Part shown: positions 7,967 through 20,933 of the stretch, in pieces | Position numbering within the stretch: the stretch's first letter is position 1 | How the letters are laid out: every line of letters starts with the position of its first letter | Made by a program: the position numbers and the translations under genes | Sequence record: SRR31156797_5393 | DNA length: 41,894 nucleotides | Direction: 5' to 3' (one strand) | The notes under the pieces: model-generated | What the model was told of the DNA's origin: nothing | Database searches by the model: none | Seen by the model: only the letters and a program-made list of their open reading frames with translations

Positions 7967-8063
7967 TAGCTGCGCCAATGACATTATTTCTGCGTCAAAA
8001 GTGCTCATTTATACTTATAAACTGCGCGCTTTTTTCTTGAACTAAAGCCATTGGCTTGCTCTA
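7967..8063. repeat. ~97-bp imperfect palindromic intergenic element
   Basis: Nested arms GCCAATGAC/GCCATTGGC, AAAAGTGC/GCGCTTTT and TTTATA/TATAAA; bounded by TAG...CTA. Confidence 0.6.
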
Positions 8064-8109
8064 CGCATTTCAAATATTAATAAGTTTAAAATGCAAAATA
8101 TCAAAAATG

Positions 8110-8236
8110 TTTACTCAAAATAGTTGGTGTTGTAGCAAGGCAACAATTGAGCACTTCCCCAGGAGCATAGTTACCTATGTGACTGGGGAGGGCGAAAGCA
8201 GTTAACGCAGCTACAACGCCAAATATGAAGAGTAAA
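8110..8236. repeat. ERIC (IRU) repeat element, 127 bp
   Basis: Minus-strand core CCCCAGTCACATAG-gtaa-CTATGCTCCTGGGGA matches the ERIC central hairpin; terminal inverted repeats TTTACTC...GAGTAAA; canonical length. Confidence 0.88.
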
Positions 8237-8238
8237 AA

Positions 8239-9831
8239 TTAGTGGCGGAAATGACGCATACCCGTAAAGATCATCGCCATACCGTGTTCATCCGCTGCGG
8301 CGATAACTTCGTCATCACGCATTGAACCACCTGGTTGAATCACGCATTTAATGCCTGCTTCTGCAGCTGCATCGATACCATCGCGGAATGGGAAGAATGC
8401 GTCAGAAGCCATTACGCTGCCTGCAACTTCAAGACCTTCGTCTGCTGCTTTGATACCTGCAATTTTAGCAGAGTAAACGCGGCTCATTTGGCCCGCGCCA
8501 ACACCGATAGTCATATCGCCTTTTGCATAAACAATCGCGTTTGATTTCACGTACTTTGCTACTTTCCAGCAGAATAGGGCATCTTTTAGCTCTTCTTCTG
8601 TTGGCTGGCGCTTAGACACTACTTTAAGGTCATCTAAAGAAACCATGCCTTGGTCGCGGTCTTGAACCAGAAGACCACCGTTAACGCGTTTTACGTCAAA
8701 ACCCGTTGTCTTAGTTGACCATTCGCCACATTCAAGTAGACGAACGTTTTTCTTCGCTGCCACAACTTCAATCGCTTCAGCAGAAACTTTAGGTGCGATG
8801 ATGACTTCAACGAACTGACGTTCAACGATAGCGGAAGCTGTTGCTGCGTCTAGCTCTTGGTTGAATGCGATGATGCCGCCGAATGCTGATGTTGGGTCAG
8901 TTTGGTAAGCACGGTTGTAAGCTTCTAGGATATCTTTACCTAGAGCAACGCCACATGGGTTTGCGTGTTTAACGATAACACATGCAGGCTCTGCAAACTC
9001 TTTCACACACTCAAGTGCAGCGTCTGTGTCTGCGATGTTGTTGTATGAAAGTGCTTTACCTTGAATTTGAGTCGCTGTTGAAACAGAAGCTTCTTCAGGG
9101 TTTGCTTCTACGTAGAAAGCAGCCGCTTGGTGGCTGTTCTCACCGTAACGCATGTCTTGCTTCTTCTCGAACTGTTGGTTGAACGTGCGAGGGAATTTCG
9201 ACTCTTCGTCACCGTCTTTGTTCTCACCATAAGATGGAACCATAGTGCCAAAGTAATTCGCGATCATGCCGTCGTATGCTGCTGTGTGCTCGAATGCTGC
9301 AATAGCAAGGTCGAAACGGGTTGGAAGAGTCAAAGACTTCTCGTTTGCGTCCATTTCAGCGATAACACGGTCGTAGTCTGATGCATTAACAACAATCGTA
9401 ACGTCTTTATGGTTTTTCGCCGCAGAGCGAACCATTGTTGGACCACCGATATCGATGTTTTCAACAGCGTCTTCTAGCGTACAACCTTCTTTTGCTACGG
9501 TTTCAGCGAATGGGTAAAGGTTAACCACAACCATATCGATTGGGTTAATACCGTGAGTGGCCATGATTTCATCATCTTGACCACGACGACCAAGAACGCC
9601 GCCATGTACTTTCGGGTGGAGTGTTTTAACACGTCCGTCCATCATTTCCGGGAAACCGGTGTAGTCTGAAACTTCAGTTACAGCAATGCCTTTTTCTGCA
9701 AGCAGGCGAGCTGTACCGCCAGTAGATAGGATATCGACACCGCGCTGTGCTAGCGCTTGTGCGAACTCAACGATGCCAGTTTTATCTGAAACACTGATAA
9801 GTGCGCGGCGAATTGGACGAGCGTTACTCAT
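8239..9831 (-). CDS. purH: Bifunctional AICAR transformylase/IMP cyclohydrolase
   Basis: [26 protein letters not shown] and MRHFRH motifs. Start at ATG 9831 (MSNARP), not 9918. Confidence 0.98.
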
Positions 9832-9993
9832 GCTTCCCTTTTCCTTTATTTCATGGAGTTGATATCCCCGGTGACCTGCTTCTGCTAGGTGGTTGGGGAT
9901 AAGAAAGATATTTGCCAAAATTGTTCATGGGTGAAGGTGATTCATCACAAACTTGGTCAATTTTGGTAAAGACCTTTGCTCCTGATTTCGGAT

Positions 9994-10045
9994 GGCGCGT
10001 ATTCTAACCAATTTATTACAAAAGATCTCGCGCAATCGTTTGGCA
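9994..10045 (-). promoter_or_regulatory. purH promoter with PurR box
   Basis: Minus-strand -10 TAGAAT (10001-10006) with discriminator ACGCGCC. GCGCAATCGTTTGGCA at 10030-10045 resembles the PUR box ACGCAAACGTTTGCGT. Confidence 0.7.
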
Positions 10046-10190
10046 TGGGCAAAATAAACCCTAAAAATAGGTTTTTCAAGAGAAAAAAGTAATGAAACAG
10101 TAAATAAAAGAGGTTAAGTGATTTTTATCTAAGCCTAGTTTATAGAGCTCTAGACTTAGATATGTCTAAGCGATAAAAGTATGCTTGGTT

Positions 10191-10298
10191 TTATAGTCCT
10201 AACCATGCAGCGCCGCGAATTCCGCTGCTGTCTCCGTATTGTGCTTGTTTAAACTGGATGCTTGCGCTGTCGGAGAAAACGTATTTGGCTGTTGCTGG
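10191..10298 (-). pseudogene. 3' remnant of a ROK-family sugar kinase (Mak/fructokinase-like)
   Basis: Translates as PATAKYVFSDSASIQFKQAQYGDSSGIRGAAWLGL*. GDSSG(V/I)RGAAWL is the C-terminal signature of Mak-type ROK kinases. No start codon; overlaps the upstream ORF in another frame. Confidence 0.85.
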
Positions 10299-10731
10299 TT
10301 GGCGCTGCAGTTTCTGCATGAGCTTGTAATGCCTCATATTTGTTGTGATGGTTTACATTCGCCTCGTAGTGCCACTGATAGGCAAAAGGCAGTTTAAAAG
10401 CACTGTGAAGAGAAAACAGCTCTTGTGCATAGTGATTCTTTTTATGGGATGTGGATACCAGTATGGAGTGATCTCGAAGATACTCTGTGATTACCATGCA
10501 GGCTAATTCTGCATCCAGCCCCTCAATTGCAACCTGGCATAAATCGAAACGGCTAATACCCAAACTTAGAATCTTCAATGACTCGCTGAGCTTGGCTTCT
10601 TTACCTTTGGTAATGTTATAAAGTACAAATACGGAACGGAAGTGGCCTGCCAGCTGTTTGAGTTCATTGATCTGCCAGCCAGCTAAGCCTTCTTGTTCAA
10701 GAATGAAAGTAATGCGCGAGGTAATGGTCAT
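10249..10731 (-). pseudogene. HPr-like domain protein, probably a truncated HPr-like/PTS EIIA fusion
   Basis: The N-terminal ~85 aa follow the HPr pattern (F.S...A...S.L..LSLG....D...V.IEG.DA..A) but lack the active His (GLAGWQ in place of GLHARP). NKYEALQ resembles the start of an EIIA domain, after which the ORF runs into ROK-derived DNA. Confidence 0.65.
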
Positions 10732-10733
10732 TA

Positions 10734-11036
10734 TTATTTAGACAAACATTTATCCATCACTTGCTGAGCGTTAGTCAGTACTTCTTCAATAGATAAATGA
10801 AAAGTACTACAGCCTTTGAAGCGTTCCTTTTCCTCAATGTCTATGTCGGACACTATCAAGCGAATATCTGCAGAGATAATCTCTTTGATTGTTAATGCGT
10901 TTTCAATTCCCATCGCACCTTGTGTTTCAACCTTTATTGAAACATTACGCTTCTGAGCCTCTTTCTGTAACACATCAGCAGCCATATAAGTATGTGCAAT
11001 ACCGGTTGGGCAAGCTGTTACTGCGACTATTTTCAC
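10734..11036 (-). CDS. PTS fructose-family EIIB component (stand-alone, FrwB-like)
   Basis: KIVAVTACPTGIAHTYMAA and KVETQGAMG motifs; GTG start. Confidence 0.92.
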   Translation of the reverse strand: MKIVAVTACPTGIAHTYMAADVLQKEAQKRNVSIKVETQGAMGIENALTIKEIISADIRLIVSDIDIEEKERFKGCSTFHLSIEEVLTNAQQVMDKCLSK

Positions 11037-11135
11037 TTTAAATATTCCATTATGAATAAGCTATAGAGCGGTAACTATAACACCGTGGTAAACATTGAGT
11101 GGAAAGAGGTTATTAAATATTGCTTAGGAAAGAAC

Positions 11136-11166
11136 AAAAAGAGCTGTGCCTAAAGGTAGACACAGC
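11136..11166 (-). terminator. Terminator of the ABC/amidase operon
   Basis: Minus strand reads GCTGTGTCTA-cctt-TAGGCACAGC-TCTTTTT. Confidence 0.75.
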
Positions 11167-11204
11167 AAACACAACATTTTCTAAGGGAGTTTTTCAATGA
11201 AAAA

Positions 11205-11969
11205 TTATAGAATTCTCGAAAGGAAAGTCTGTGTACGTACCTGCTGAGGGTTGAGCAGAATTTCGTTAGGGGGACCTTCTTCAACGACAACGCCGCCATC
11301 CATGAAAATGACTTTATCTGCAGCTTCTTTGGCGAAGCCAATTTCATGAGTTACGACGATCATAGTCAAACCTTGATCAGCGAGAGCTCTCATTGTTTCC
11401 AGTACTTCGCCAACTAACTCTGGATCAAGCGCTGATGTAGGTTCATCAAACAAAATCACATCTGGTTTGATTGCTAATGCTCTTGCGATTGATACCCGCT
11501 GTTGTTGCCCCCCGGAAAGCTGACTTGGGTAGTCATTTTCGCGATCTGCTAAGCCGACTTTTTGTAACAATTCACGGGCATATGCAATCGCCTCTTTCTT
11601 CGGGTGTTTATGTACACCAACCGGTGCTTCAATCAGGTTTTCCATAACAGTCATGTGTGGATATAGATTGAACTGTTGAAATACCATGGCGATTTTTTCG
11701 CGTTGCTTTGCAATATATTTTGTTGATGCATGGTGCAATTGACCATTTTTGAATTGGTAGCCAATTTGTTCATCACTAACAGAAATGTAGCCACTATCCA
11801 TGTGTTCTAATTGGTTAATACATCTTAAGAAGGTTGACTTACCGGATCCTGAGGGTCCCAGTATTACCACTACTTCTCCTTGCTTAACGTCTAAGTTGAT
11901 ACCTTTTAGTACCTCGTTATCACCAAAGCTTTTATTAACATCGCGAGCTTCAATTACCAAATTACTCAT
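11205..11969 (-). CDS. Polar amino acid ABC transporter ATP-binding protein
   Basis: [29 protein letters not shown] and VVTHE motifs. Confidence 0.95.
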
Positions 11970-12912
11970 TGGTGACTCCTTTCTGCGTTAGCGTTTCTTC
12001 CTTCTTAAATAGCTTGGATAGAAGTAATGACCAGTGGCTTTTTTTCGCATAGCGATCAGATTTATTGTAGTAATTTTCTACAGCATCCTGAACCACGCTA
12101 AGGACTGATGTAACAACCAAATACCAAATAACAGCCACCATGAGTAGCGGAATTACTTTAAAGTTGCTGTTGTAAATACTCTGCACTTCGTAGAGAAGAT
12201 CTCCCATCGCAATCATACTAACCATAGAAGTTGCTTTAACCATGTTTATCAGTTGGTTACTGGTTGGTGGTACTATGGATTTCATTGCCTGAGGAATGAT
12301 GATTCGACGGTAAACTCTTGCCCGCGACATCCCAAACGAATGTGCCGTTTCAAATTGTTTTTCATCTACAGAAATCAGGCCTCCTCGAATAATTTCAGCC
12401 ATATAAGCGGCTTCATTTAATGCAAGGCCAGCAATGGCTGCCGTCAATGGTGTGATTAAATCATTGGTATCCCACTGGGCTAATTCTGGTCCCAAAGGAA
12501 TGCTTAAACTGATATGCGGAAACAAGCTGGATAAGTTGTACCAAAACAGGAGTTGCACTAGTAAAGGCGTCCCGCGAAAAATCCAAACATAAACAGAGGA
12601 AACTGATCGTAGTACAGGATTTTGCGAGATTTTAGCTATCGCCAAAAATAGCCCAATTACGATACCTATTACCATAGCAACCACGGTCAACGCCAGAGAC
12701 ATCTCAAGGCCGCTTATAATTGCGGGATTAAAAAGGTATTTGAATACAGTTGGCCATTCAAAATTGGGATTTTGAGATACCAATTGAATAAGCTTCAGCG
12801 CGATCAGTCCTACAACTAATATTGCTAGCAGAGTGCCATACGGCACTCTACGTTTTACGTTAGCAACATTTCGTGGATGGTCTGAGGCGTTTATGTACTT
12901 TTCATTAAGCAT
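11962..12912 (-). CDS. Polar amino acid ABC transporter permease
   Basis: [15 protein letters not shown] and [14 protein letters not shown] (HisM/GlnP family). Confidence 0.95.
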
Positions 12913-12929
12913 ATCGCCGAGACTCCTTA

Positions 12930-13820
12930 CTACTGAGTTTTGGTCGTAGCTAGGTTAATACCCGGCTGATCTAAACGGTTACCAGTAAGACCCCATTTTT
13001 CTAGGATCGCGTCATACGTTCCATTTTTATGGAGTTCTTCATAACCACTTTTAATAACGTGAGCAAGAGGAGAGCCTTTCGGAACTACAGCACCTTGGTA
13101 TAAGTCACCAAAGCCGTTTGCCTGACCTGTACCAGTCAGTTCCAGAGCGCCATCCGATACTTTTACAAAGTAAGATAGTGGTGCGCGGGAAGAGAAGAAG
13201 GCATCAGCACGGTTAGATTTTACTGCCAGAATAGAGGTTGGCTGGTCAGAGAATGACATAACTTTAACCGCGGGTTTTCCTGCTTCTTCACATTTAGCTG
13301 ATTGTCCGCGAATGACTCGTTCAGCAGAGCCTCCAGCCATAACAGAAATGCGTTTACCACAAGTGGTATCCAGACCATCAATGTTTTCTGGGTTGCCCGC
13401 TTTTACGGCAAAGACAACAAACTCCTGAACATAATCAACGAAATCGACACTCTCTTCACGGCTTGCAAAATCACCCACCGGGCCTGAGTCGTATGTATAG
13501 CGTCCGGATTTAATCCCCATAAGGATAGAAGAAAGTCCGTTAACACTCTTATGCTCGATTTTAATGCCTAGTAATTCCGATAACGCCTTATCAAAGTCGA
13601 TAGCTGCTCCGGTAATGTGATTGCTATCGTTAACGATAGTGTATGGAGGAAATGAGCCATTCATGACGGCAGTCATTACACCTGCATCTTTTATGTCCTG
13701 AGGGAGCATTTCATGGAGCTCAGCATTGTATGCTTGTGTTGGTATATCTGCTGCGTTAGCAAATGGAGATATTGCTAATAGTGAGCAAAGTGCGGTAGTG
13801 ATTAAATTGATTTTTTTCAT
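12930..13820 (-). CDS. Amino acid ABC transporter substrate-binding protein (SBP family 3)
   Basis: Signal peptide MKKINL...ANA-ADI from ATG 13820; FPPY, CGKRISV..G and GTYDAILEKWGL motifs. Confidence 0.92.
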   Translation of the reverse strand: MKKINLITTALCSLLAISPFANAADIPTQAYNAELHEMLPQDIKDAGVMTAVMNGSFPPYTIVNDSNHITGAAIDFDKALSELLGIKIEHKSVNGLSSILMGIKSGRYTYDSGPVGDFASREESVDFVDYVQEFVVFAVKAGNPENIDGLDTTCGKRISVMAGGSAERVIRGQSAKCEEAGKPAVKVMSFSDQPTSILAVKSNRADAFFSSRAPLSYFVKVSDGALELTGTGQANGFGDLYQGAVVPKGSPLAHVIKSGYEELHKNGTYDAILEKWGLTGNRLDQPGINLATTKTQ

Positions 13821-13845
13821 GTCTACTATCCTTGTAGCTATAAAA

Positions 13846-14652
13846 TTAAGAGTTAACCAGTTGTGGAGTATCAAAACGTCGGTTGGCCAGTGCCGGAAGT
13901 ATCGAGCGAGCATAGTCGATGCGTTCTTTTTTGATAACTGCAACGACGAGTTCATCCTGTTCGCTGGCGCTGGCAATACTGACACCTAATGGATCGATGG
14001 CTTTACTTAATCCAATGTTTCTTGGACCAGATTCACCGATTGCAAGCATGTAACAAGTGTTTTCAAGCGCACGGGCTGTAATCAGTGTGTCCCAGTGATG
14101 CTCTTTCAGCGGCCCTTTCACCCAGGCTGCAGGAAGAACCAGAGCATCAGCACCATCAAGTACCAGACGGCGGCTTAATTCCGGGAAGCGAACGTCATAA
14201 CACGTCATCAAACCGAGTTTGAATCCATTCACATCAACCAATGGTGGTACTTCTGTGCCCGGGATGACATTGGTAGATTCTTTCATCGTAAATGCATCGT
14301 ATAGGTGGAGCTTTTTATACTCAGCGATGACTTCACCCTGACGAATTCCCAGATGTACGTTCCAAACTTTTTCACTCTCATCTTTTGATGGGACGTGAAT
14401 AGTCATCAGTATCGTCATGTGAAACTGTTTGCTAAATGACAGCAATTCAGAAACAAATGGTCCATCGAGATTTTGCGCTGCTCGTCTAACTAAATCTGGG
14501 TCGGCAATATCTCGGGCTAAAATACCTTCCGGTAGAATTAATAGTTCAACGCCTTTCTCTGCTGCAGATTCAATATATTTTTTGCAGGTTTCAAGGTTTT
14601 CCTGCCATGTTTTCGCTACTGTAAACTGGCCTAAACCAACAACTAATTCCAT
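13846..14652 (-). CDS. Carbon-nitrogen hydrolase, Nit1/YbeM (deaminated glutathione amidase)-like
   Basis: Glu-Lys-Cys triad motifs LPEG, YKKLHLYDAF and TCYDVRFPE, plus ARALEN. Confidence 0.88.
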   Translation of the reverse strand: MELVVGLGQFTVAKTWQENLETCKKYIESAAEKGVELLILPEGILARDIADPDLVRRAAQNLDGPFVSELLSFSKQFHMTILMTIHVPSKDESEKVWNVHLGIRQGEVIAEYKKLHLYDAFTMKESTNVIPGTEVPPLVDVNGFKLGLMTCYDVRFPELSRRLVLDGADALVLPAAWVKGPLKEHHWDTLITARALENTCYMLAIGESGPRNIGLSKAIDPLGVSIASASEQDELVVAVIKKERIDYARSILPALANRRFDTPQLVNS

Positions 14653-14661
14653 GTTTATTCC

Positions 14662-15612
14662 TTACCAACTTTCTTCTGAGAACAATGTGTTAATTGACAA
14701 TGGTTCAGAGAGGATTCCCTGTTCATAAATTTCTATACACCAGTCTTCCAGCATTTTCTTATTTGCGCTGATGCCCTGATCGTTCCATGTCTGGGGGAGA
14801 TCTTTGTGCATACGAGAAATGTCATCGAGCAACCAGGGGGTGGTGTCTGCATACTTAGTTCGTTTATCCATCCACAGATGGTATGAGTCGTCAAATGCAG
14901 CGCTGATTAGCTTTCCAATACCTGGATTGTTAGCAACAAAATCACGCTTCAGAACGACAATGTGAATACCGGGGATATAGCCCTGCTCCTGAACATAGGT
15001 ACGTTCAATGTTCTGGTAATTTTTGAATAGAGGGCGAAGTTTTGAATCTTCATTGAAAAATCCTGCAGGCATAAATGGAGTGCAGATTGCGTCTAACTCG
15101 CCCATTTCAAGCAGTTCAACCATTGGAGTGTCATCAGGGCAATTATCTATCCAGCCTGGTTGTCCAAAACCAGCAAGGCGGTCGACGATAGGGTGCTCTG
15201 CTGTTAGACGACCCACAAACCAGTGGATGTCTTTCATATCGATTCCTGCCTGACGGAAAATTGCACGAGTCCAGATGTTTCCGGAATCCTGCCATCCTGT
15301 CAGACCAACTTTCTTGACGGATTTCAGCTCATTAATTTCACTCGATTTACGAGTAAGAATGCAGCGATGTCTGAAACCTCGCATTAAGAAGTGAGGAATG
15401 CCGATGAGAGAGTCGTCGCCTTTTGCTTTTAGCTGACTATAACGGCTGAGTGACATCTCGCCGCCTTGGTATTCAGGATGTTTGCTCCAATCATCAACAA
15501 GAGTGTTAACTCTGGTGATATTCAAATCCAATTCTGAGCTTGAAACTTCATTGAGCAACAGTGGTGTCAGGTAGTCCCAGTCTCTGACAGCAAGGTTAGT
15601 TTGTACAGCCAA
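14662..15612 (-). CDS. Cytoplasmic type II periplasmic-binding-fold protein, 4,5-dihydroxyphthalate decarboxylase-like
   Basis: EMSLSRY, IPHFL.R.FRH, VG..GWQDSGNIW.R and GELDA motifs recall that family; no signal peptide. Start uncertain: TTG 15612 has GGAG 6 nt upstream; ATGs at 15624 and 15642 are alternatives. Confidence 0.65.
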   Translation of the reverse strand: MAVQTNLAVRDWDYLTPLLLNEVSSSELDLNITRVNTLVDDWSKHPEYQGGEMSLSRYSQLKAKGDDSLIGIPHFLMRGFRHRCILTRKSSEINELKSVKKVGLTGWQDSGNIWTRAIFRQAGIDMKDIHWFVGRLTAEHPIVDRLAGFGQPGWIDNCPDDTPMVELLEMGELDAICTPFMPAGFFNEDSKLRPLFKNYQNIERTYVQEQGYIPGIHIVVLKRDFVANNPGIGKLISAAFDDSYHLWMDKRTKYADTTPWLLDDISRMHKDLPQTWNDQGISANKKMLEDWCIEIYEQGILSEPLSINTLFSEESW

Positions 15613-15675
15613 GTTTAACTCCATTAAACAATCGTGAAACATTAGTTAAAAATTATACTAATTGTGATTTTTTGG

Positions 15676-15705
15676 TTGTACAATGTGTTTTTTGTTACTG
15701 TACAA
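15676..15705. promoter_or_regulatory. Candidate MocR operator repeats
   Basis: TGTACAA at 15677-15683 and 15699-15705, 22 bp apart, in the divergent intergenic region. Confidence 0.5.
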
Positions 15706-15715
15706 AAATTAATTT

Positions 15716-17050
15716 ATGGACAAAGAATCGATAAATAAACAAGTGGTTGAATCCATTAAGGGACTTAGCATTCAGGATATGACTGTTGAGATGACGGCTC
15801 TTATAAGATCAGGTGCGATTCCTGTTGGTGTTAAATTGCCTGCGGTAAGAGCCTTAGCTGAGGAGCTTTCTATTAGCCCGACATCAATTTCGATCGTATG
15901 GAATAACCTTAAAAAAATAGGGTTGATCGAGAGTGCAGGACGCAATGGTGTGTGGGTGAGTGGCAGCGATCCATCTCCCAGACCTAAACGATTTGAAAAC
16001 GTGGGTAACTTCGGTAATCGAACTAAAGTTGATCTTATGTATTCAGGACCGGATGTTTCTCTGCTACCAAAAATGGAAGAAGCGTTTTCTTATGCCTGCA
16101 AAACGGAAAATATTCATAGTTATCAAAGACAAGAAATTACTGATGAACTCAAGCAGTCGGTAGTGAATGATTGGCCGTATAAAGCTGAATCCTACATGGC
16201 GACTAATGGTGGTTTCGATGGCCTGCAAGCTATATTAAGTGCACTGGTTCAACCCGGTACTTGGATGGCTGTTGAAGAACCGACGACGGCTCGTGTTTTG
16301 GATATCCTGGATAATTTGGGAATCCGTATTGTCCCTGTGGCTTGTGATGAAGAAGGACCGATGGTTGAGTCTTTAGCTAACGCTATGGATAAAAAACTGT
16401 CCGGTTTTCTTTTCCAGCCGCGGACTCATTCCGTACTTGGAACGTCAGTGTCTGAAAAGAGAATGAATGAGTTAGCTCCATTATTAGAATCGATACCACT
16501 GATCATCGAAGATGATGGTATTGGTTGTATTTCAGAATCAAAAGCGACGAGTTTCGGTGACCGTTTCCCTGAACAAGTTGTCCATATTCGTAGTTACTCA
16601 AAAACGCTTGGACCGGATTTTCGCCTTGCTGTTTTATCAACTACGAAAAGCAAAGCTCAGTCTATACAGGCGTACCGAAATTTTGGAGCCAGTTGGACGA
16701 GCCGAATATTGCAAAATGCAGCTGCGCATTTGTTGAATAGTGATGGTTATACCATCTATATCAAAACCACCCGCGATGAATATGCAAAACGCCGTAGATG
16801 GTTGACCGATGCTCTGAAAGAGAGAGGGGTAAGTTGGTTTGGCTCAGAGGGGCTCAGTGTATGGATCCCTGTTCCTTCTGAACGTTATGCCTTGGTGACT
16901 ATGGCGGTTCATGGATACGCTGTTTTCCCAGGGCGTCGATTTTTAACAGAAACAGCCTCGGATTACATACGTGTCGCATCCAGTGGATTAAAACAAGAGG
17001 ATATTGAACCTCTTGCAGATGCTATCGCACTTTGCTTTGATATCAGTTAG
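15716..17050 (+). CDS. MocR/GabR-family transcriptional regulator (GntR wHTH + PLP aminotransferase-like domain)
   Basis: LPAVRALAEELSISP wHTH, IIEDD, and SYSKTLGPDFRLA carrying the PLP-binding Lys. Confidence 0.92.
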   Translation: MDKESINKQVVESIKGLSIQDMTVEMTALIRSGAIPVGVKLPAVRALAEELSISPTSISIVWNNLKKIGLIESAGRNGVWVSGSDPSPRPKRFENVGNFGNRTKVDLMYSGPDVSLLPKMEEAFSYACKTENIHSYQRQEITDELKQSVVNDWPYKAESYMATNGGFDGLQAILSALVQPGTWMAVEEPTTARVLDILDNLGIRIVPVACDEEGPMVESLANAMDKKLSGFLFQPRTHSVLGTSVSEKRMNELAPLLESIPLIIEDDGIGCISESKATSFGDRFPEQVVHIRSYSKTLGPDFRLAVLSTTKSKAQSIQAYRNFGASWTSRILQNAAAHLLNSDGYTIYIKTTRDEYAKRRRWLTDALKERGVSWFGSEGLSVWIPVPSERYALVTMAVHGYAVFPGRRFLTETASDYIRVASSGLKQEDIEPLADAIALCFDIS

Positions 17051-17060
17051 TTGTTTAAAC

Positions 17061-17092
17061 AAAAAAGCTCAACTATTTCTAGTTGAGCTTTT
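17061..17092. terminator. Bidirectional terminator between the MocR gene and fis
   Basis: AAAAAAGCTCAACTA-tttc-TAGTTGAGCTTTT. Confidence 0.85.
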
Positions 17093-17117
17093 AAATTCAA
17101 TAAATTAGCGTGAGCTA

Positions 17118-17414
17118 TTAATTCATGCCGTATTTTTTAAGCTTCTTGCGAAGAGTACCGCGGTTGATACCCATCATAGTTGCTGCGCGAGTTTGGTTAC
17201 CGCGAGTGTACTGCATGATGGTATCTAGTAGTGGTTGTTCAACTTCCGCTAGAACTAACTCGTATAGTTCTGTTACTTCTTGGCCATTTAACTGAGCAAG
17301 ATAGTTTTTAAGAGATGCTTTAACGGAGTCACGTAATGGCTTTTGCGTGATTTGGTCTTGTGAAGTTACTGTAGTTACTGTTAAAGCTTCTGAAGTCAGA
17401 TTTTGTTCGAACAT
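17118..17414 (-). CDS. fis: DNA-binding protein Fis
   Basis: KPLRDSVK...[27 protein letters not shown]; 98 aa. Confidence 0.98.
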
Positions 17415-17462
17415 ATTCGGTCTAGCTCTTCTCTTAATTATGATGCAACGTTACCCGCGCGG

Positions 17463-18431
17463 TTATGCTTGGGTATTATCAAAATAACCTTCAAGCGCTT
17501 CTAATTGCAGCTGGGCTGCCTCTATAGCGTTGAAGGAACGGCGAAACTCACCTGCTTGTTCATGTTCCTTTAAGTACCAACCAACGTGCTTACGCGCGAT
17601 TCTCGGACCTAAATACTCACCATAAAAATTATGTAGAGCAGTCACATGACCAAGCAAAATACCTTTCACTTCCTCAGATGGAAGTTCAGGCATTGTGGTG
17701 CCGTTTTCCAAATAGTGTTGGATTTCCTGGAAAATCCACGGACGACCCTGGGCAGGGCGTCCAATCATTAAAGCGTCAGCGCCTGTGTACTCAAGCACGT
17801 ATTTGGCTTTTTCCGGAGAATCGATATCACCGTTAGCGATAACCGGAATCTTAATCGCCTCTTTTGCCGCTTTAATGCTGTCGTATTCTGCCTCACCTTT
17901 GTACATACAAGTACGTGTGCGCCCATGAAGCGCCAGTGCTTGTATGCCGCAGTTTTCGGCTAATTGAGCGATATAGACACAGTTTTTGTTTTCTGGGTCC
18001 CAGCCAGTTCGGGTTTTAAGAGTCACAGGGACATCTACCGCATCTACTACGGTTTTCAGAATATCTTCAATGAGATCTGGAAAACGTAGCAAAGCGGACC
18101 CGGCCAGCTTTTTATTCACTTTTTTCGCTGGGCAGCCCATATTGATATCGATGATTTGCGCACCGTTCTCAACGCTAAACTGAGCCGCCTCGGCCATAAG
18201 CTGTGGATCACTTCCCGCTATTTGTACTGAACGAATGCCCGATTCGCCTCTATGTACCATGCGGCTTTTTGATTTCTCGGTTTTCCACAGCGCAGGATTG
18301 GAAGACATCATTTCACTGACGGCCATTCCTGCACCATAACGAAGACACAACTCACGAAACGGTCTATCAGTAACACCCGCCATTGGGGCGACGATAAGAT
18401 TGTTCTTAAGTTGATAATTTCCGATCTTCAA
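17463..18431 (-). CDS. dusB: tRNA-dihydrouridine synthase B
   Basis: [15 protein letters not shown] and HGRTR motifs; directly upstream of fis. Probable TTG start at 18431 (MKIGNYQL). Confidence 0.96.
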
Positions 18432-18458
18432 AATGTCTTCACAGCTTAGTACCAGCAA

Positions 18459-18495
18459 GGGCGCGCATTTTACGCATTTTTTCACTGCGTGAAAA
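18459..18495 (-). promoter_or_regulatory. dusB-fis promoter, stringent type
   Basis: Minus strand reads TTTCAC-16 bp-TAAAAT followed by the GC-rich discriminator GCGCGCCC. Confidence 0.6.
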
Positions 18496-18570
18496 GACTA
18501 ATATTTGAGCATTTACAAATTGTTTTTGTAAATTGTCTATTTTTCAATCAATTAAGTTCAAAAGTTAAAT

Positions 18571-19458
18571 TTAGTTTAACTTTTGACCAGAGATTCGACA
18601 CCACTCTTTCATCTCAACGATAGGGTCGATATGCAGTTCGTCGCGATAGTAATTGGCAACGTCTTCAGCTTGAGTGTCTAACACGCCTGACATGGCTAAT
18701 TGACCTTTAGGCTTCATTAGTCCTTTAATCACACCGGATAGTTCACGAAGAGGGCCTGCGAGGATATTCGCAACAACAACGTCTGCGGCTAATCCTTCAG
18801 GTTGATCTTGAGGGAGGTAAACTTCGATTTGGTCTTTCACGCCATTGCGTTCAGCGTTGTCTTTCGAAGCGAGTAGTGCTTGTGGATCGATATCGATCCC
18901 TATGACTTTTTCTGCGCCTAGTTTGATCGCAGCGATCGCCAAGATGCCGGAACCACAACCAAAATCGATAACAGTTTTACCTGCTAAATCCAGAGATTCT
19001 AACCATTCTAAGCACAGTGCCGTTGTTGGGTGGGTACCCGTACCAAACGCAAGACCTGGGTCAAGCATAACGTTGACGGCTTCTGGATCTGGAATATCAC
19101 GCCAGCTTGGACAAATCCATAAACGCTCACCGAATTTCATTGGGTGGAAGTTGTCCATCCATTCGCGTTCCCAGTCTTTGTCTTCAATTTGCTCGACTTT
19201 ATGTGCAAACCCTTCAGGAAGCAGCTTGCTATCACGAATCTGGCTGATGATAAGAGCGGTATCCACTTCTGCATCATACAAAGCAAGAACGTCGGTATCC
19301 CCCCATAGACGAGTTTCGCCAGGTAAAGGCTCAAACACAGGCGTGTCTTTTGCGTCGAGGAAAGTAACAGACAAAGCGCCAGTATCTTCCATTAGCATAT
19401 CGCTAATGTGTTCTGCGTTTTCGTTAGTCGCGTTTAGCTTGATTTGAATCCAAGGCAT
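18571..19458 (-). CDS. prmA: Ribosomal protein L11 methyltransferase
   Basis: [21 protein letters not shown] and DFGCGSGIL motifs. Confidence 0.97.
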
Positions 19459-19541
19459 GTGATTGCTCTCTCAGTTCTTTATATTGGCGCAGAGTTTACT
19501 CTTGCACTCGTGGTGCTGCAACTTTGCGCGACGGTAGAAAC

Positions 19542-19568
19542 AAAAATACCCACCGAAGTGGGTATTTT
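19542..19568 (-). terminator. Terminator after accC
   Basis: AAAAATACCCAC-cgaa-GTGGGTATTTT. Confidence 0.85.
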
Positions 19569-19583
19569 ACAAAGCGTCGTCTA

Positions 19584-20933
19584 TTAAGACTTATTCATAC
19601 CGAGTTTTTTCTCTAGGTAGTGAATGTTCGCGCCACCATGCTGGAAGTTCTCATCTTTCATGATCTCTTCCTGTAGAGGTACGTTAGTCTTGATGCCTTC
19701 TACAATCATCTCGTTTAAAGCATTTTTCATACGAGCGATGGCAACGTCACGGTTTTCACCGAATGTGATTAGCTTACCAATCATTGAATCGTAGTACGGT
19801 GGCACTGTGTAACCTGAGTAGATGTGCGATTCCCAACGAACACCCATACCGCCTGGAGTATGCAGACGAGTAATTTTACCCGGGCTTGGTAGGAAACGTA
19901 CTGGATCTTCCGCGTTGATACGACATTCAACGGCATGGCCACGAATCTTGATGTCATTTTGAGTGAATGACAGAGGCTGACCTGCTGCAATGCGAAGCTG
20001 CTCTTTGATTAGGTCAACGCCAGTTACCATTTCAGTCACGGGGTGCTCAACCTGAATACGTGTGTTCATCTCAATGAAGTAGAACTCGCCATTTTCGTAT
20101 AGGAACTCGAAAGTACCTGCGCCTCGGTAGCCAATTTCAATACATGCACGAGTACAACGTTCACCGATGTACTTACGCATCTCTTCAGTGATACCTGGAG
20201 CTGGAGCTTCTTCCACCACTTTTTGGTGACGACGCTGCATTGAACAGTCACGCTCACCTAAGTGGATTGCGCCACCTTGGCCATCCGCAAGAACCTGAAC
20301 TTCAACGTGACGAGGGTTTTCAAGGAATTTTTCCATGTAAACCATATCGTTGTTGAATGCGGCTTTTGCTTCAGCACGTGTCATGCTGATTGCGTTAACC
20401 AGTTCAGCTTCGGAGCGAACAACACGCATACCACGACCACCGCCGCCGCCAGATGCTTTGATGATAACTGGGTAGCCGATGCGTTTAGCGTGAGCTTTGT
20501 TTTTCGCTTCGTCATTGTCCAGTGGACCATCAGAGCCTGGTACACAAGGAACGCCAGCTTTCTTCATTGAGTTGATAGCAGAAACTTTGTCGCCCATCAG
20601 GCGAATAGTTTCTGCTTTAGGGCCAACAAAGATGAAGCCACTACGTTCAACTTGTTCTGCAAAATCTGCGTTTTCAGACAGGAAACCGTAACCAGGGTGG
20701 ATAGCGATCGCGCCCGTTACTTCTGCCGCAGAGATAATGCGAGGGATGTTTAGGTAGCTTTCTAAGCTTGATGCAGGACCGATACAGATCGATTCATCAG
20801 CGAGAAGGACATGCTTTAGATCGCGGTCTGCTGTTGAGTGAACAGCAACCGTTTTGATCCCTAATTCTTTACACGCGCGAAGGATACGAAGTGCAATTTC
20901 ACCTCGGTTCGCGATGACTACTTTATCTAACAT
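19584..20933 (-). CDS. accC: Acetyl-CoA carboxylase, biotin carboxylase subunit
   Basis: [15 protein letters not shown] and [10 protein letters not shown] motifs; ATG 20933. Confidence 0.98.

Follow-up and report, generated by a model that had tools for sequence, protein, structure and literature searches.

A conserved MocR-linked gene module with an amino-acid-type importer, a YbeM-type amidase and a cytoplasmic binding-fold protein in Proteobacteria

We analyzed a DNA stretch of 41,894 nucleotides from sequence record SRR31156797_5393 (hereafter the window, meaning this whole stretch) and focused on a six-gene module at positions 11205-17050. Five genes lie on the minus strand and, counted from the first gene of the putative operon, encode a cytoplasmic binding-fold protein related to 4,5-dihydroxyphthalate decarboxylase (14662-15612), a carbon-nitrogen hydrolase (amidase) of the YbeM/Nit1 type (13846-14652), a periplasmic family-3 solute-binding protein with a signal peptide (12930-13820), a permease of the HEQRo three-transmembrane (3-TM) type (11962-12912), and the ATPase of a polar amino acid-type ATP-binding cassette (ABC) transporter (11205-11969). 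The sixth gene is divergent (15716-17050, plus strand) and encodes a regulator of the MocR/GabR subfamily, which has a GntR-type winged helix-turn-helix domain and an aminotransferase-like domain. Together, these six genes form one conserved unit, with a conserved multi-box operator between the divergent genes.

The five minus-strand genes are tightly spaced, with gaps of 9, 25, and 17 nucleotides followed by an 8-nucleotide overlap. The 25-nucleotide gap assumes that the solute-binding protein starts at 13820; its listed open reading frame (ORF) extends to a GTG at 13985. The start at 13820 is likely the true one because MKKINL... opens a signal-peptide-like N-terminus and fits the starts of the homologs. 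For the binding-fold gene, the ORF (326 amino acids) is open up to an ATG at 15642, and the start is probably the TTG at 15612 because GGAG lies 6 nucleotides upstream and a 99%-identical database protein (P0001) has 316 amino acids. The operon is closed by a terminator-like hairpin on the minus strand (11143-11166), which starts 39 nucleotides past the ATPase stop and has a 10-pair stem with 5 G-C pairs, then TCTTTTTGTT. Another terminator-like hairpin, bidirectional and with a 13-pair stem flanked by A- and T-runs, marks the MocR/fis boundary (17063-17092). An earlier note on this DNA had described five close co-directional genes with their own terminator, divergent from a MocR gene with an intact cofactor lysine, and had assigned the products to a binding-fold enzyme, a YbeM/Nit1 amidase, and an amino acid ABC importer. 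These assignments hold, the first as a cytoplasmic binding-fold enzyme homolog and the last as an importer of the polar amino acid type, on the evidence given below for each product.

To define the conservation of this module, we scanned genome contigs (genome_contigs; a single genome for each species), which yielded 457 relatives of the binding-fold protein, and counted the module genes by tblastn and ORF clustering across the best 80 of these 457 loci. The binding-fold gene is present in all 80, the ATPase gene in 79, the permease and solute-binding protein genes in 77 each, a divergent MocR gene in 74, and the amidase gene in 59; some of the shortfalls reflect contig ends (L006, L010, L036, L056, and L076). 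All six genes occur in the order of the window in 55 of the 80 loci, which belong to alpha-, beta-, and gammaproteobacteria. Because this order recurs so often, the arrangement is far beyond chance, and the earlier note's expectation that a gene-neighborhood check would find the gene set in other genomes was borne out. Gammaproteobacterial carriers include Vibrio, Pantoea, Erwinia, Brenneria, Ewingella, and Sodalis, betaproteobacterial carriers include Polaromonas, Uliginosibacterium, and Formivibrio, and the alphaproteobacterial carriers include Microvirga.

In the regulator, the Pfam GntR domain covers residues 27-81 (36.3 bits; cut-off 27) and the Aminotran_1_2 match reaches 70.2 bits. K296, within the motif SYSK, aligns with the SFSK/FSK lysine of solved aminotransferases (PH0207 and KAT II), which presumably carries pyridoxal 5'-phosphate (PLP), and S[YF]SK is kept in 72 of the 74 module MocR proteins. 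The best NCBIfam model for this protein is PtsJ (NF012025), with 219 bits against a cut-off of 573, and no named MocR model was passed. Identity as PtsJ, a MocR protein of vitamin B6 salvage, was considered and rejected; the score is far under the cut-off and no pdxK-type gene lies nearby.

Between the divergent genes, we predicted a MocR operator (15658-15704) that consists of two TGTACA boxes (15677-15682 and 15699-15704) and a conserved ACAATTAG element (15658-15665). Beside it lies a perfect TATAAT on the minus strand (15652-15657), read from the sequence as the likely -10 element of the operon; this hexamer was skipped by a simple promoter scan for want of a good -35 element. Given their position beside the TATAAT, the predicted boxes are expected to overlap both promoters. 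TGTACA-N16-TGTACA occurs once in the window (15677-15704), compared with 0.11 occurrences expected. The divergent region is conserved from Vibrio to Rhizobium and takes the form of TTTGTWCAGTAAC, ATTGTWCA about ten bases on, and then ACAWTTAG, with the first box approximately 10-20 nucleotides from the MocR start codon. In 72 of the 80 loci, the box-1 pattern lies no more than 260 bp ahead of the operon, compared with 21 occurrences elsewhere (1.57 Mb, both strands); the eight misses are accounted for by contig ends, the MocR-less locus L038, one long spacer, and diverged variants. This pattern provides computational support for control of the operon by MocR and for autoregulation, and it ties the MocR gene to the operon as the earlier note had proposed. 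A regulator-operator pair that is conserved in three classes could be developed into a biosensor after the inducer has been identified.

The product of the first gene has no Pfam match, even at an E-value of 10 (search with the 326-amino-acid form). It shows clear homology to PDB entry 9jp7, the 4,5-dihydroxyphthalate decarboxylase of Comamonas testosteroni KF-1, with E-values of 1e-23 for the single sequence and 1e-42 for a 24-sequence profile. The AlphaFold model (mean predicted local distance difference test score, pLDDT, of 86.3) has the same fold and matches 9jp7 in Foldseek with a template modeling (TM) score of 0.81 at 23% identity; further Foldseek matches are binding-fold enzymes or binding proteins, such as MqnD, Thi5, TauA, and SsuA. 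The protein lacks the signal peptide that is present in the binding protein of the transporter. It shares D21, D23, E62, S64, S66, Y68, R88, R91, N122, W124, R126, and H227 with 9jp7, and within the family the motifs RDWD and F[RK][HQ]RC are found in 80/80 and 77/80 loci, respectively.

Relatives of this protein carry the public names "nitrate ABC transporter substrate-binding protein" or "4,5-dihydroxyphthalate decarboxylase," the latter in JGI and some NCBI records, and a search of the ESM Atlas returned only clusters named "putative nitrate ABC transporter substrate-binding protein." Taken literally, the decarboxylase name, together with the fold match to 9jp7, would make this a gene for the degradation of phthalate or another aromatic acid. 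However, identity to 9jp7 is only 23-24%, the module in the window has no phthalate pathway context, no oxygenase or dihydrodiol dehydrogenase gene was found in the window, and no dioxygenase, dihydrodiol dehydrogenase, or reductase was found in any of the 80 loci. Paralogs that are 24-26% identical belong to cytoplasmic clusters for carboxylate or aromatic catabolism, and a true phthalate-type context was seen for only one of them (L084, 24% identity), in a classic cluster with a Rieske oxygenase, a GFO/IDH/MocA dehydrogenase, and a Fer2 reductase. We consider a role in aromatic acid degradation highly improbable. The genomic context backs neither public name, and we read the protein as a separate subfamily of cofactor-free enzymes that probably act on a different substrate, which would define a new subfamily of cytoplasmic binding-fold enzymes.

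The same protein may also be viewed as non-enzymatic, namely, a cytoplasmic ligand-binding accessory that acts as a sensor partner or as a substrate chaperone for the amidase or MocR. Its fold is that of periplasmic binding proteins, most public records call it an ABC transporter substrate-binding protein, and catalytic residues could not be assigned. Nevertheless, the closest solved relative is an enzyme, an alignment of 24 sequences that are about 50% identical has approximately 60 invariant columns, and a search for fused or longer forms found none, although this last point is weak evidence. Furthermore, the locus L038 of Rhizobium sp. CG5 (51% identity) holds the binding-fold gene without MocR, the amidase, or the family-3 transporter and is the only one of the 80 loci that lacks all other module genes. 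There (9902-15042), the gene directly precedes that of a 973-amino-acid YdiJ-like FAD/Fe-S D-2-hydroxyacid dehydrogenase (842 bits; cut-off 1350), and the surroundings include an FmdA/AmdA amidase, a creatininase-family hydrolase, and two peptide-type (Dpp/Opp) ABC systems. A purely accessory role appears improbable to us. The context at L038 putatively links the binding-fold enzyme to amide and 2-hydroxy/2-oxo-acid chemistry and may represent a second, different pathway that uses the same enzyme.

YbeM/Nit1 is a textbook case of metabolite repair, and thousands of genomes carry this annotation. Peracchi and colleagues reportedly assayed YbeM on deaminated glutathione in 2017, and to our knowledge the Escherichia coli protein is known so far only as a lone repair enzyme. 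The amidase in the window (CN_hydrolase, 135 bits) passes the NCBIfam model NF033621, "deaminated glutathione amidase" (407.4 bits; cut-off 355), and is 52% identical over its full length to YbeM of E. coli LF82. The two proteins have the same predicted Glu-Lys-Cys triad (E42, K114, and C151 in the window), the motifs of which are present in 58-59 of the 59 module amidases.

The genomic slot provides a second connection to ybeM. In Erwiniaceae and several Yersiniaceae, pagP and cspE border the module at one end and tatE-lipA-lipB-dacA-rlpA-rodA at the other, and the gene order of E. coli LF82 in that slot is pagP-cspE-crcB-ybeM-tatE-lipA-lipB-dacA. In other words, E. coli has the amidase alone where Erwiniaceae carry the whole module. 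When a 4-kb Pantoea query that contains the binding-fold, amidase, binding-protein, and permease genes was searched against 5,426 E. coli genomes, none matched at least 80% of the query, and by eye no TGTWCA box was seen upstream of E. coli ybeM. An order-level sample contained five lone amidases, namely, three in the E. coli-type slot, L092, and L093. The L092 amidase has the Erwiniaceae-type GNAT gene on one side and tatE on the other, the module genes are missing from both sides, and the L093 amidase is found in another context. In a FastTree phylogeny of 66 amidases (59 from module loci, the window, and six lone ones), which has an arbitrary root and for which the tool warns of long-branch joining, the four E. 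coli-type amidases group in a distinct long-branched clade, separate from the module amidases, and both L092 and L093 nest within the module amidase clade. Based on this nesting, reduction of the module to the amidase alone appears to have happened at least once or twice.

The GNAT acetyltransferase gene adjoins MocR in 38 Erwiniaceae-type loci (e.g., L003, 8124-8555). It was retained at L092 (7810-9087) after the reduction to the amidase and is thus a neighbor rather than a module gene.

These findings place the YbeM/Nit1 counterpart in many Proteobacteria as one gene of a probable regulated import-and-breakdown operon, which offers a testable route to the physiological substrate of the bacterial enzyme.

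Among the 80 loci, 21 have no amidase gene, and in 15 of these a gene for an M20 protein directly follows the ATPase gene. The 15 M20-type loci are all alphaproteobacterial or unclassified, and in a quick tree built from 81 rows of the binding-fold protein, all of which were kept, they form one clade with 99% support in the Shimodaira-Hasegawa-like approximate likelihood ratio test (SH-aLRT). The M20 protein contains Peptidase_M20 (3/3 tested) and scores 365-367 bits on TIGR01891, "amidohydrolase" (cut-off 154; 2/2 tested), with near-hits to the carboxypeptidase CpsA and the N-acetyl-diaminobutyrate deacetylase DoeB2. Outside the locus, five M20-type genomes hold nothing closer to the module amidase than matches of 30-38% identity, and one genome lacks any match. 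The replacement of the amidase by an M20 protein suggests that an N-acyl/amide-bond hydrolase has been kept though the protein family changed. Also, this swap for an N-acyl-amino-acid amidohydrolase in one clade lends support to the N-acylated substrate that the earlier note had offered as one option. Microvirga holds both variants, with the amidase at L008, L061, L072, and L079 and the M20 protein at L028, L043, and L064, in different binding-fold clades.

The transporter has the composition of a polar amino acid (PAAT) importer, with a family-3 binding protein (SBP_bac_3, 66.2 bits), a 3-TM-type permease (BPD_transp_1, 93.1 bits; TIGR01726, 87.7 bits, cut-off 42.2), and an ATPase (ABC_tran, 127.6 bits), and it reaches no named equivalog cut-off. 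Among named families, the ATPase is closest to TcyN (330 bits; cut-off 406) and EhuA (312 bits; cut-off 345), the permease scores 145 bits on the cystine permease model (cut-off 300), and the binding protein scores 65 bits on the model of the cystine system TcyJLN (cut-off 312), its second-best named match. Identity as the TcyJLN cystine transporter was rejected, as all three scores are under the curated cut-offs.

In the binding protein, for which the nearest solved chain is AncQR (E-value 2e-20), R121 is kept and aligns with the Arg of the GlnH/TcyJ motif DERKK. All 77 module binding proteins have an FFSS signature, in which FSS replaces LHD of GlnH and LVD of TcyJ, and all 77 have a GPxGD[FY] motif. 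The GlnH Asp at the position of the module Ser is, we assume from the structural literature, the residue that holds the alpha-ammonium group of the ligand. If so, the module ligand may not be bound in the manner of a plain amino acid, and an N-substituted or keto compound would fit this. It is also conceivable that the newly conserved Asp of the binding protein could compensate for the missing one.

The affinities of the transporter and amidase bring two alternative substrates into consideration. First, the module could scavenge glutathione- or cysteine-derived compounds, such that deaminated glutathione or a related S-/N-conjugate is converted into 2-oxoglutarate and Cys-Gly or cysteine as a sulfur or nitrogen source. 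The similarity of the amidase to YbeM and its score above the NF033621 cut-off would fit, as would the cystine system TcyJLN being the nearest named relative of both the ATPase and the permease and the second best for the binding protein. Moreover, a review (PMC7041631) describes the hydrolysis of deaminated glutathione by Nit1 to 2-oxoglutarate and to cysteine and glycine building blocks. However, all three transporter scores are below their cut-offs, no Cys-Gly peptidase or gamma-glutamyl enzyme is conserved across the 80 loci, the binding-fold enzyme would have no role, and the M20 replacement indicates a more general N-acyl bond. The E. coli-type YbeM, which we take to be the characterized enzyme, also falls in a clade apart from the module amidases. 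We judge this origin of the substrate unlikely, and the glutathione/cysteine idea, which the earlier note had offered as one option, draws only on the sub-cut-off cystine transporter similarity and the family name of the amidase.

Second, the module could serve the catabolism of a compatible solute or an N-acetylated diamino acid, like the ectoine Ehu/Doe-EnuR system. The second-best named matches of the ATPase and permease are EhuA and EhuC, respectively, the regulator reaches 130 bits on the EhuR model, the M20 protein reaches 330-333 bits on DoeB2, and the carriers include marine, plant-associated, and soil bacteria. Yet all of these scores are under the curated cut-offs (345, 197, 480, and 550), the loci show no conserved gene for an ectoine hydrolase, a transaminase, or a semialdehyde dehydrogenase, and the binding-fold enzyme is again left unexplained. 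In our estimate, an ectoine-like role has little probability.

With regard to genomic location, the binding-fold gene was found in 1 of 201 Vibrionaceae genomes, and this was the seed, Vibrio sp. HA2012, in which the module sits elsewhere, on another contig and beside a TonB-dependent receptor gene. Among 26 Vibrionaceae genomes (G001-G026), 23 have dusB and purH on one contig; the dusB-purH gap, calculated manually from tables, spans 0.9-22 kb and does not exceed 2.2 kb in 10 of these genomes. The gap is 7.5 kb in the window and 12.8 kb in Vibrio sp. HA2012. This wide range indicates that the module is an accessory insertion at a variable fis-purH spot (9919-17462 in the window). In a phylum sample, relatives at an E-value of 1e-8 or better were found in 7 of 401 genomes, and only three of these, the seed included, have 46-75% identity. 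Partial spread by horizontal transfer forms part of the best explanation for the distribution of the module.

Two loci have taxonomic labels that merit comment. L040 (labeled Martelella alba, an alphaproteobacterium by name) and L058 (Enterobacter sp. BRE11) fall within Pantoea/Erwiniaceae clades in each of the two trees, and their gene order is that of Erwiniaceae, which suggests mislabeled or contaminated assemblies or recent transfer.

The module had been described as lying between purH and fis. This position is right, and two small phosphotransferase system (PTS)-like genes (10249-11036, minus strand) also lie between purH and the module. One of them encodes a fructose-type PTS IIB domain (PTS_IIB, 69 bits; TIGR00829, 105 bits), and the other is a 160-amino-acid ORF with a weak HPr match below the threshold (21.3 bits; cut-off 23). 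The ORFs listed for positions 8000-20000 include no PTS IIC or IIA partner. For purH itself (ORF 8239-9918), the listed TTG start is about 33 codons upstream of the start in the family model and relatives, and the real start is probably further inside the listed ORF.

Taking the conservation, predicted operator, and gene content together, we propose that the module is a substrate-inducible uptake-and-catabolism operon for an amide-linked, probably acidic, amino-acid derivative, a reading in which we place slightly more confidence than doubt. In this scheme, the secreted family-3 binding protein, the permease, and the ATPase would bring the compound into the cell, and the YbeM-type amidase with its Glu-Lys-Cys triad would cleave the amide bond to give a carboxylic acid and an amine or amino acid. 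The binding-fold enzyme may carry out a cofactor-free decarboxylation, or a related acid-base step, on a 2-oxo- or dicarboxylate moiety, either of the substrate or of the product. MocR, bound to the TGTWCA boxes, would change its state when an amino compound of the pathway forms an aldimine with PLP at K296.

Several points weigh against this proposal. The decarboxylase chemistry predicted for the binding-fold protein derives from 23% identity to one solved enzyme, a literature search for the mechanism or catalytic residues of 9jp7, a phthalate review included, found none, and the family-invariant R93, C94, W117, D119, H150, and K260-Y264 are not common to 9jp7. The box-1 pattern was counted on the very sequences that had served to derive it. 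No replacement amidase was seen near three to four of the amidase-less loci. Finally, the amidase scores above the cut-off of a housekeeping family and could do the deaminated glutathione job regardless of its neighbors, and in the order-level sample a YbeM-like amidase is present in 6 of 201 genomes and the binding-fold gene in one, the seed.

More speculatively, this uptake-and-catabolism operon may be a dedicated pathway for N-(2-oxo-/dicarboxy-acyl) amino acids or 2-oxoglutaramate-type amides, with a binding-fold reaction that is new for the fold and with ybeM as a leftover; we regard this narrower version as a possibility that is more doubtful than probable. If it is true, the candidate reactions of the binding-fold enzyme would be cofactor-free decarboxylation of the keto-acid part, or ring-opening/tautomerization that feeds the amidase. 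Also, the bacterial "deaminated glutathione amidase" would have originated as a catabolic component of the module, and E. coli ybeM would be what remains after loss of the other five genes. Four observations are hints in favor of this version but are not proof: the 2-oxoglutarate product of the Nit1-type reaction, as given in part of PMC7041631; the coupling at L038 to a YdiJ-like dehydrogenase of the D-2-hydroxyglutarate type; the Ser that replaces the Asp of GlnH/TcyJ in the binding protein; and the amidase-only loci nested in the module clade.

In a literature search, no characterized pathway with the gene set of this module was found, as the earlier note had stated, and neither was a pairing of a binding-fold enzyme with a Nit-type amidase. 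The only match of one query concerns a Bordetella phthalate-type gene. To call this an undescribed system, as had been done, is an overstatement; all parts come from known families, and the E. coli counterpart of the amidase already has a name. The module is a conserved, uncharacterized regulon, every part of which belongs to a known family, and its main value lies in the context that it provides for YbeM/Nit1 and for a mis-annotated enzyme subfamily.

Among known systems, the GabR-gabTD, TauR, and EnuR/EhuR operons resemble the module in having a divergent MocR gene beside transport and catabolic genes, a PLP lysine, and a repeat-type operator. MocR-controlled operons for gamma-aminobutyric acid, taurine, and ectoine constitute the general picture in the accessible portions of the sources (PMC5320631; PMC8739950). 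The module differs in its decarboxylase-like binding-fold protein and Nit-type amidase, which are not named in the main text of PMC5320631, the supplementary tables of which may list such a group. Another relevant system is the yxe operon of Bacillus subtilis, which functions in the breakdown of S-(2-succino)cysteine and, according to part of PMC9706529, includes a Tcy-like family-3 ABC importer and a TIGR01891-type M20 deacylase. The breakdown enzymes of yxe-type operons named in that part of the source are the monooxygenase YxeK or a 2SL class I lyase, unlike the binding-fold protein of the module; no acetyltransferase belongs to the module, and the regulator differs too. What the two systems share, as far as that part of the source goes, is the logic of an importer combined with a breakdown enzyme and an M20 deacylase, the last of which is the alphaproteobacterial variant in the case of the module.

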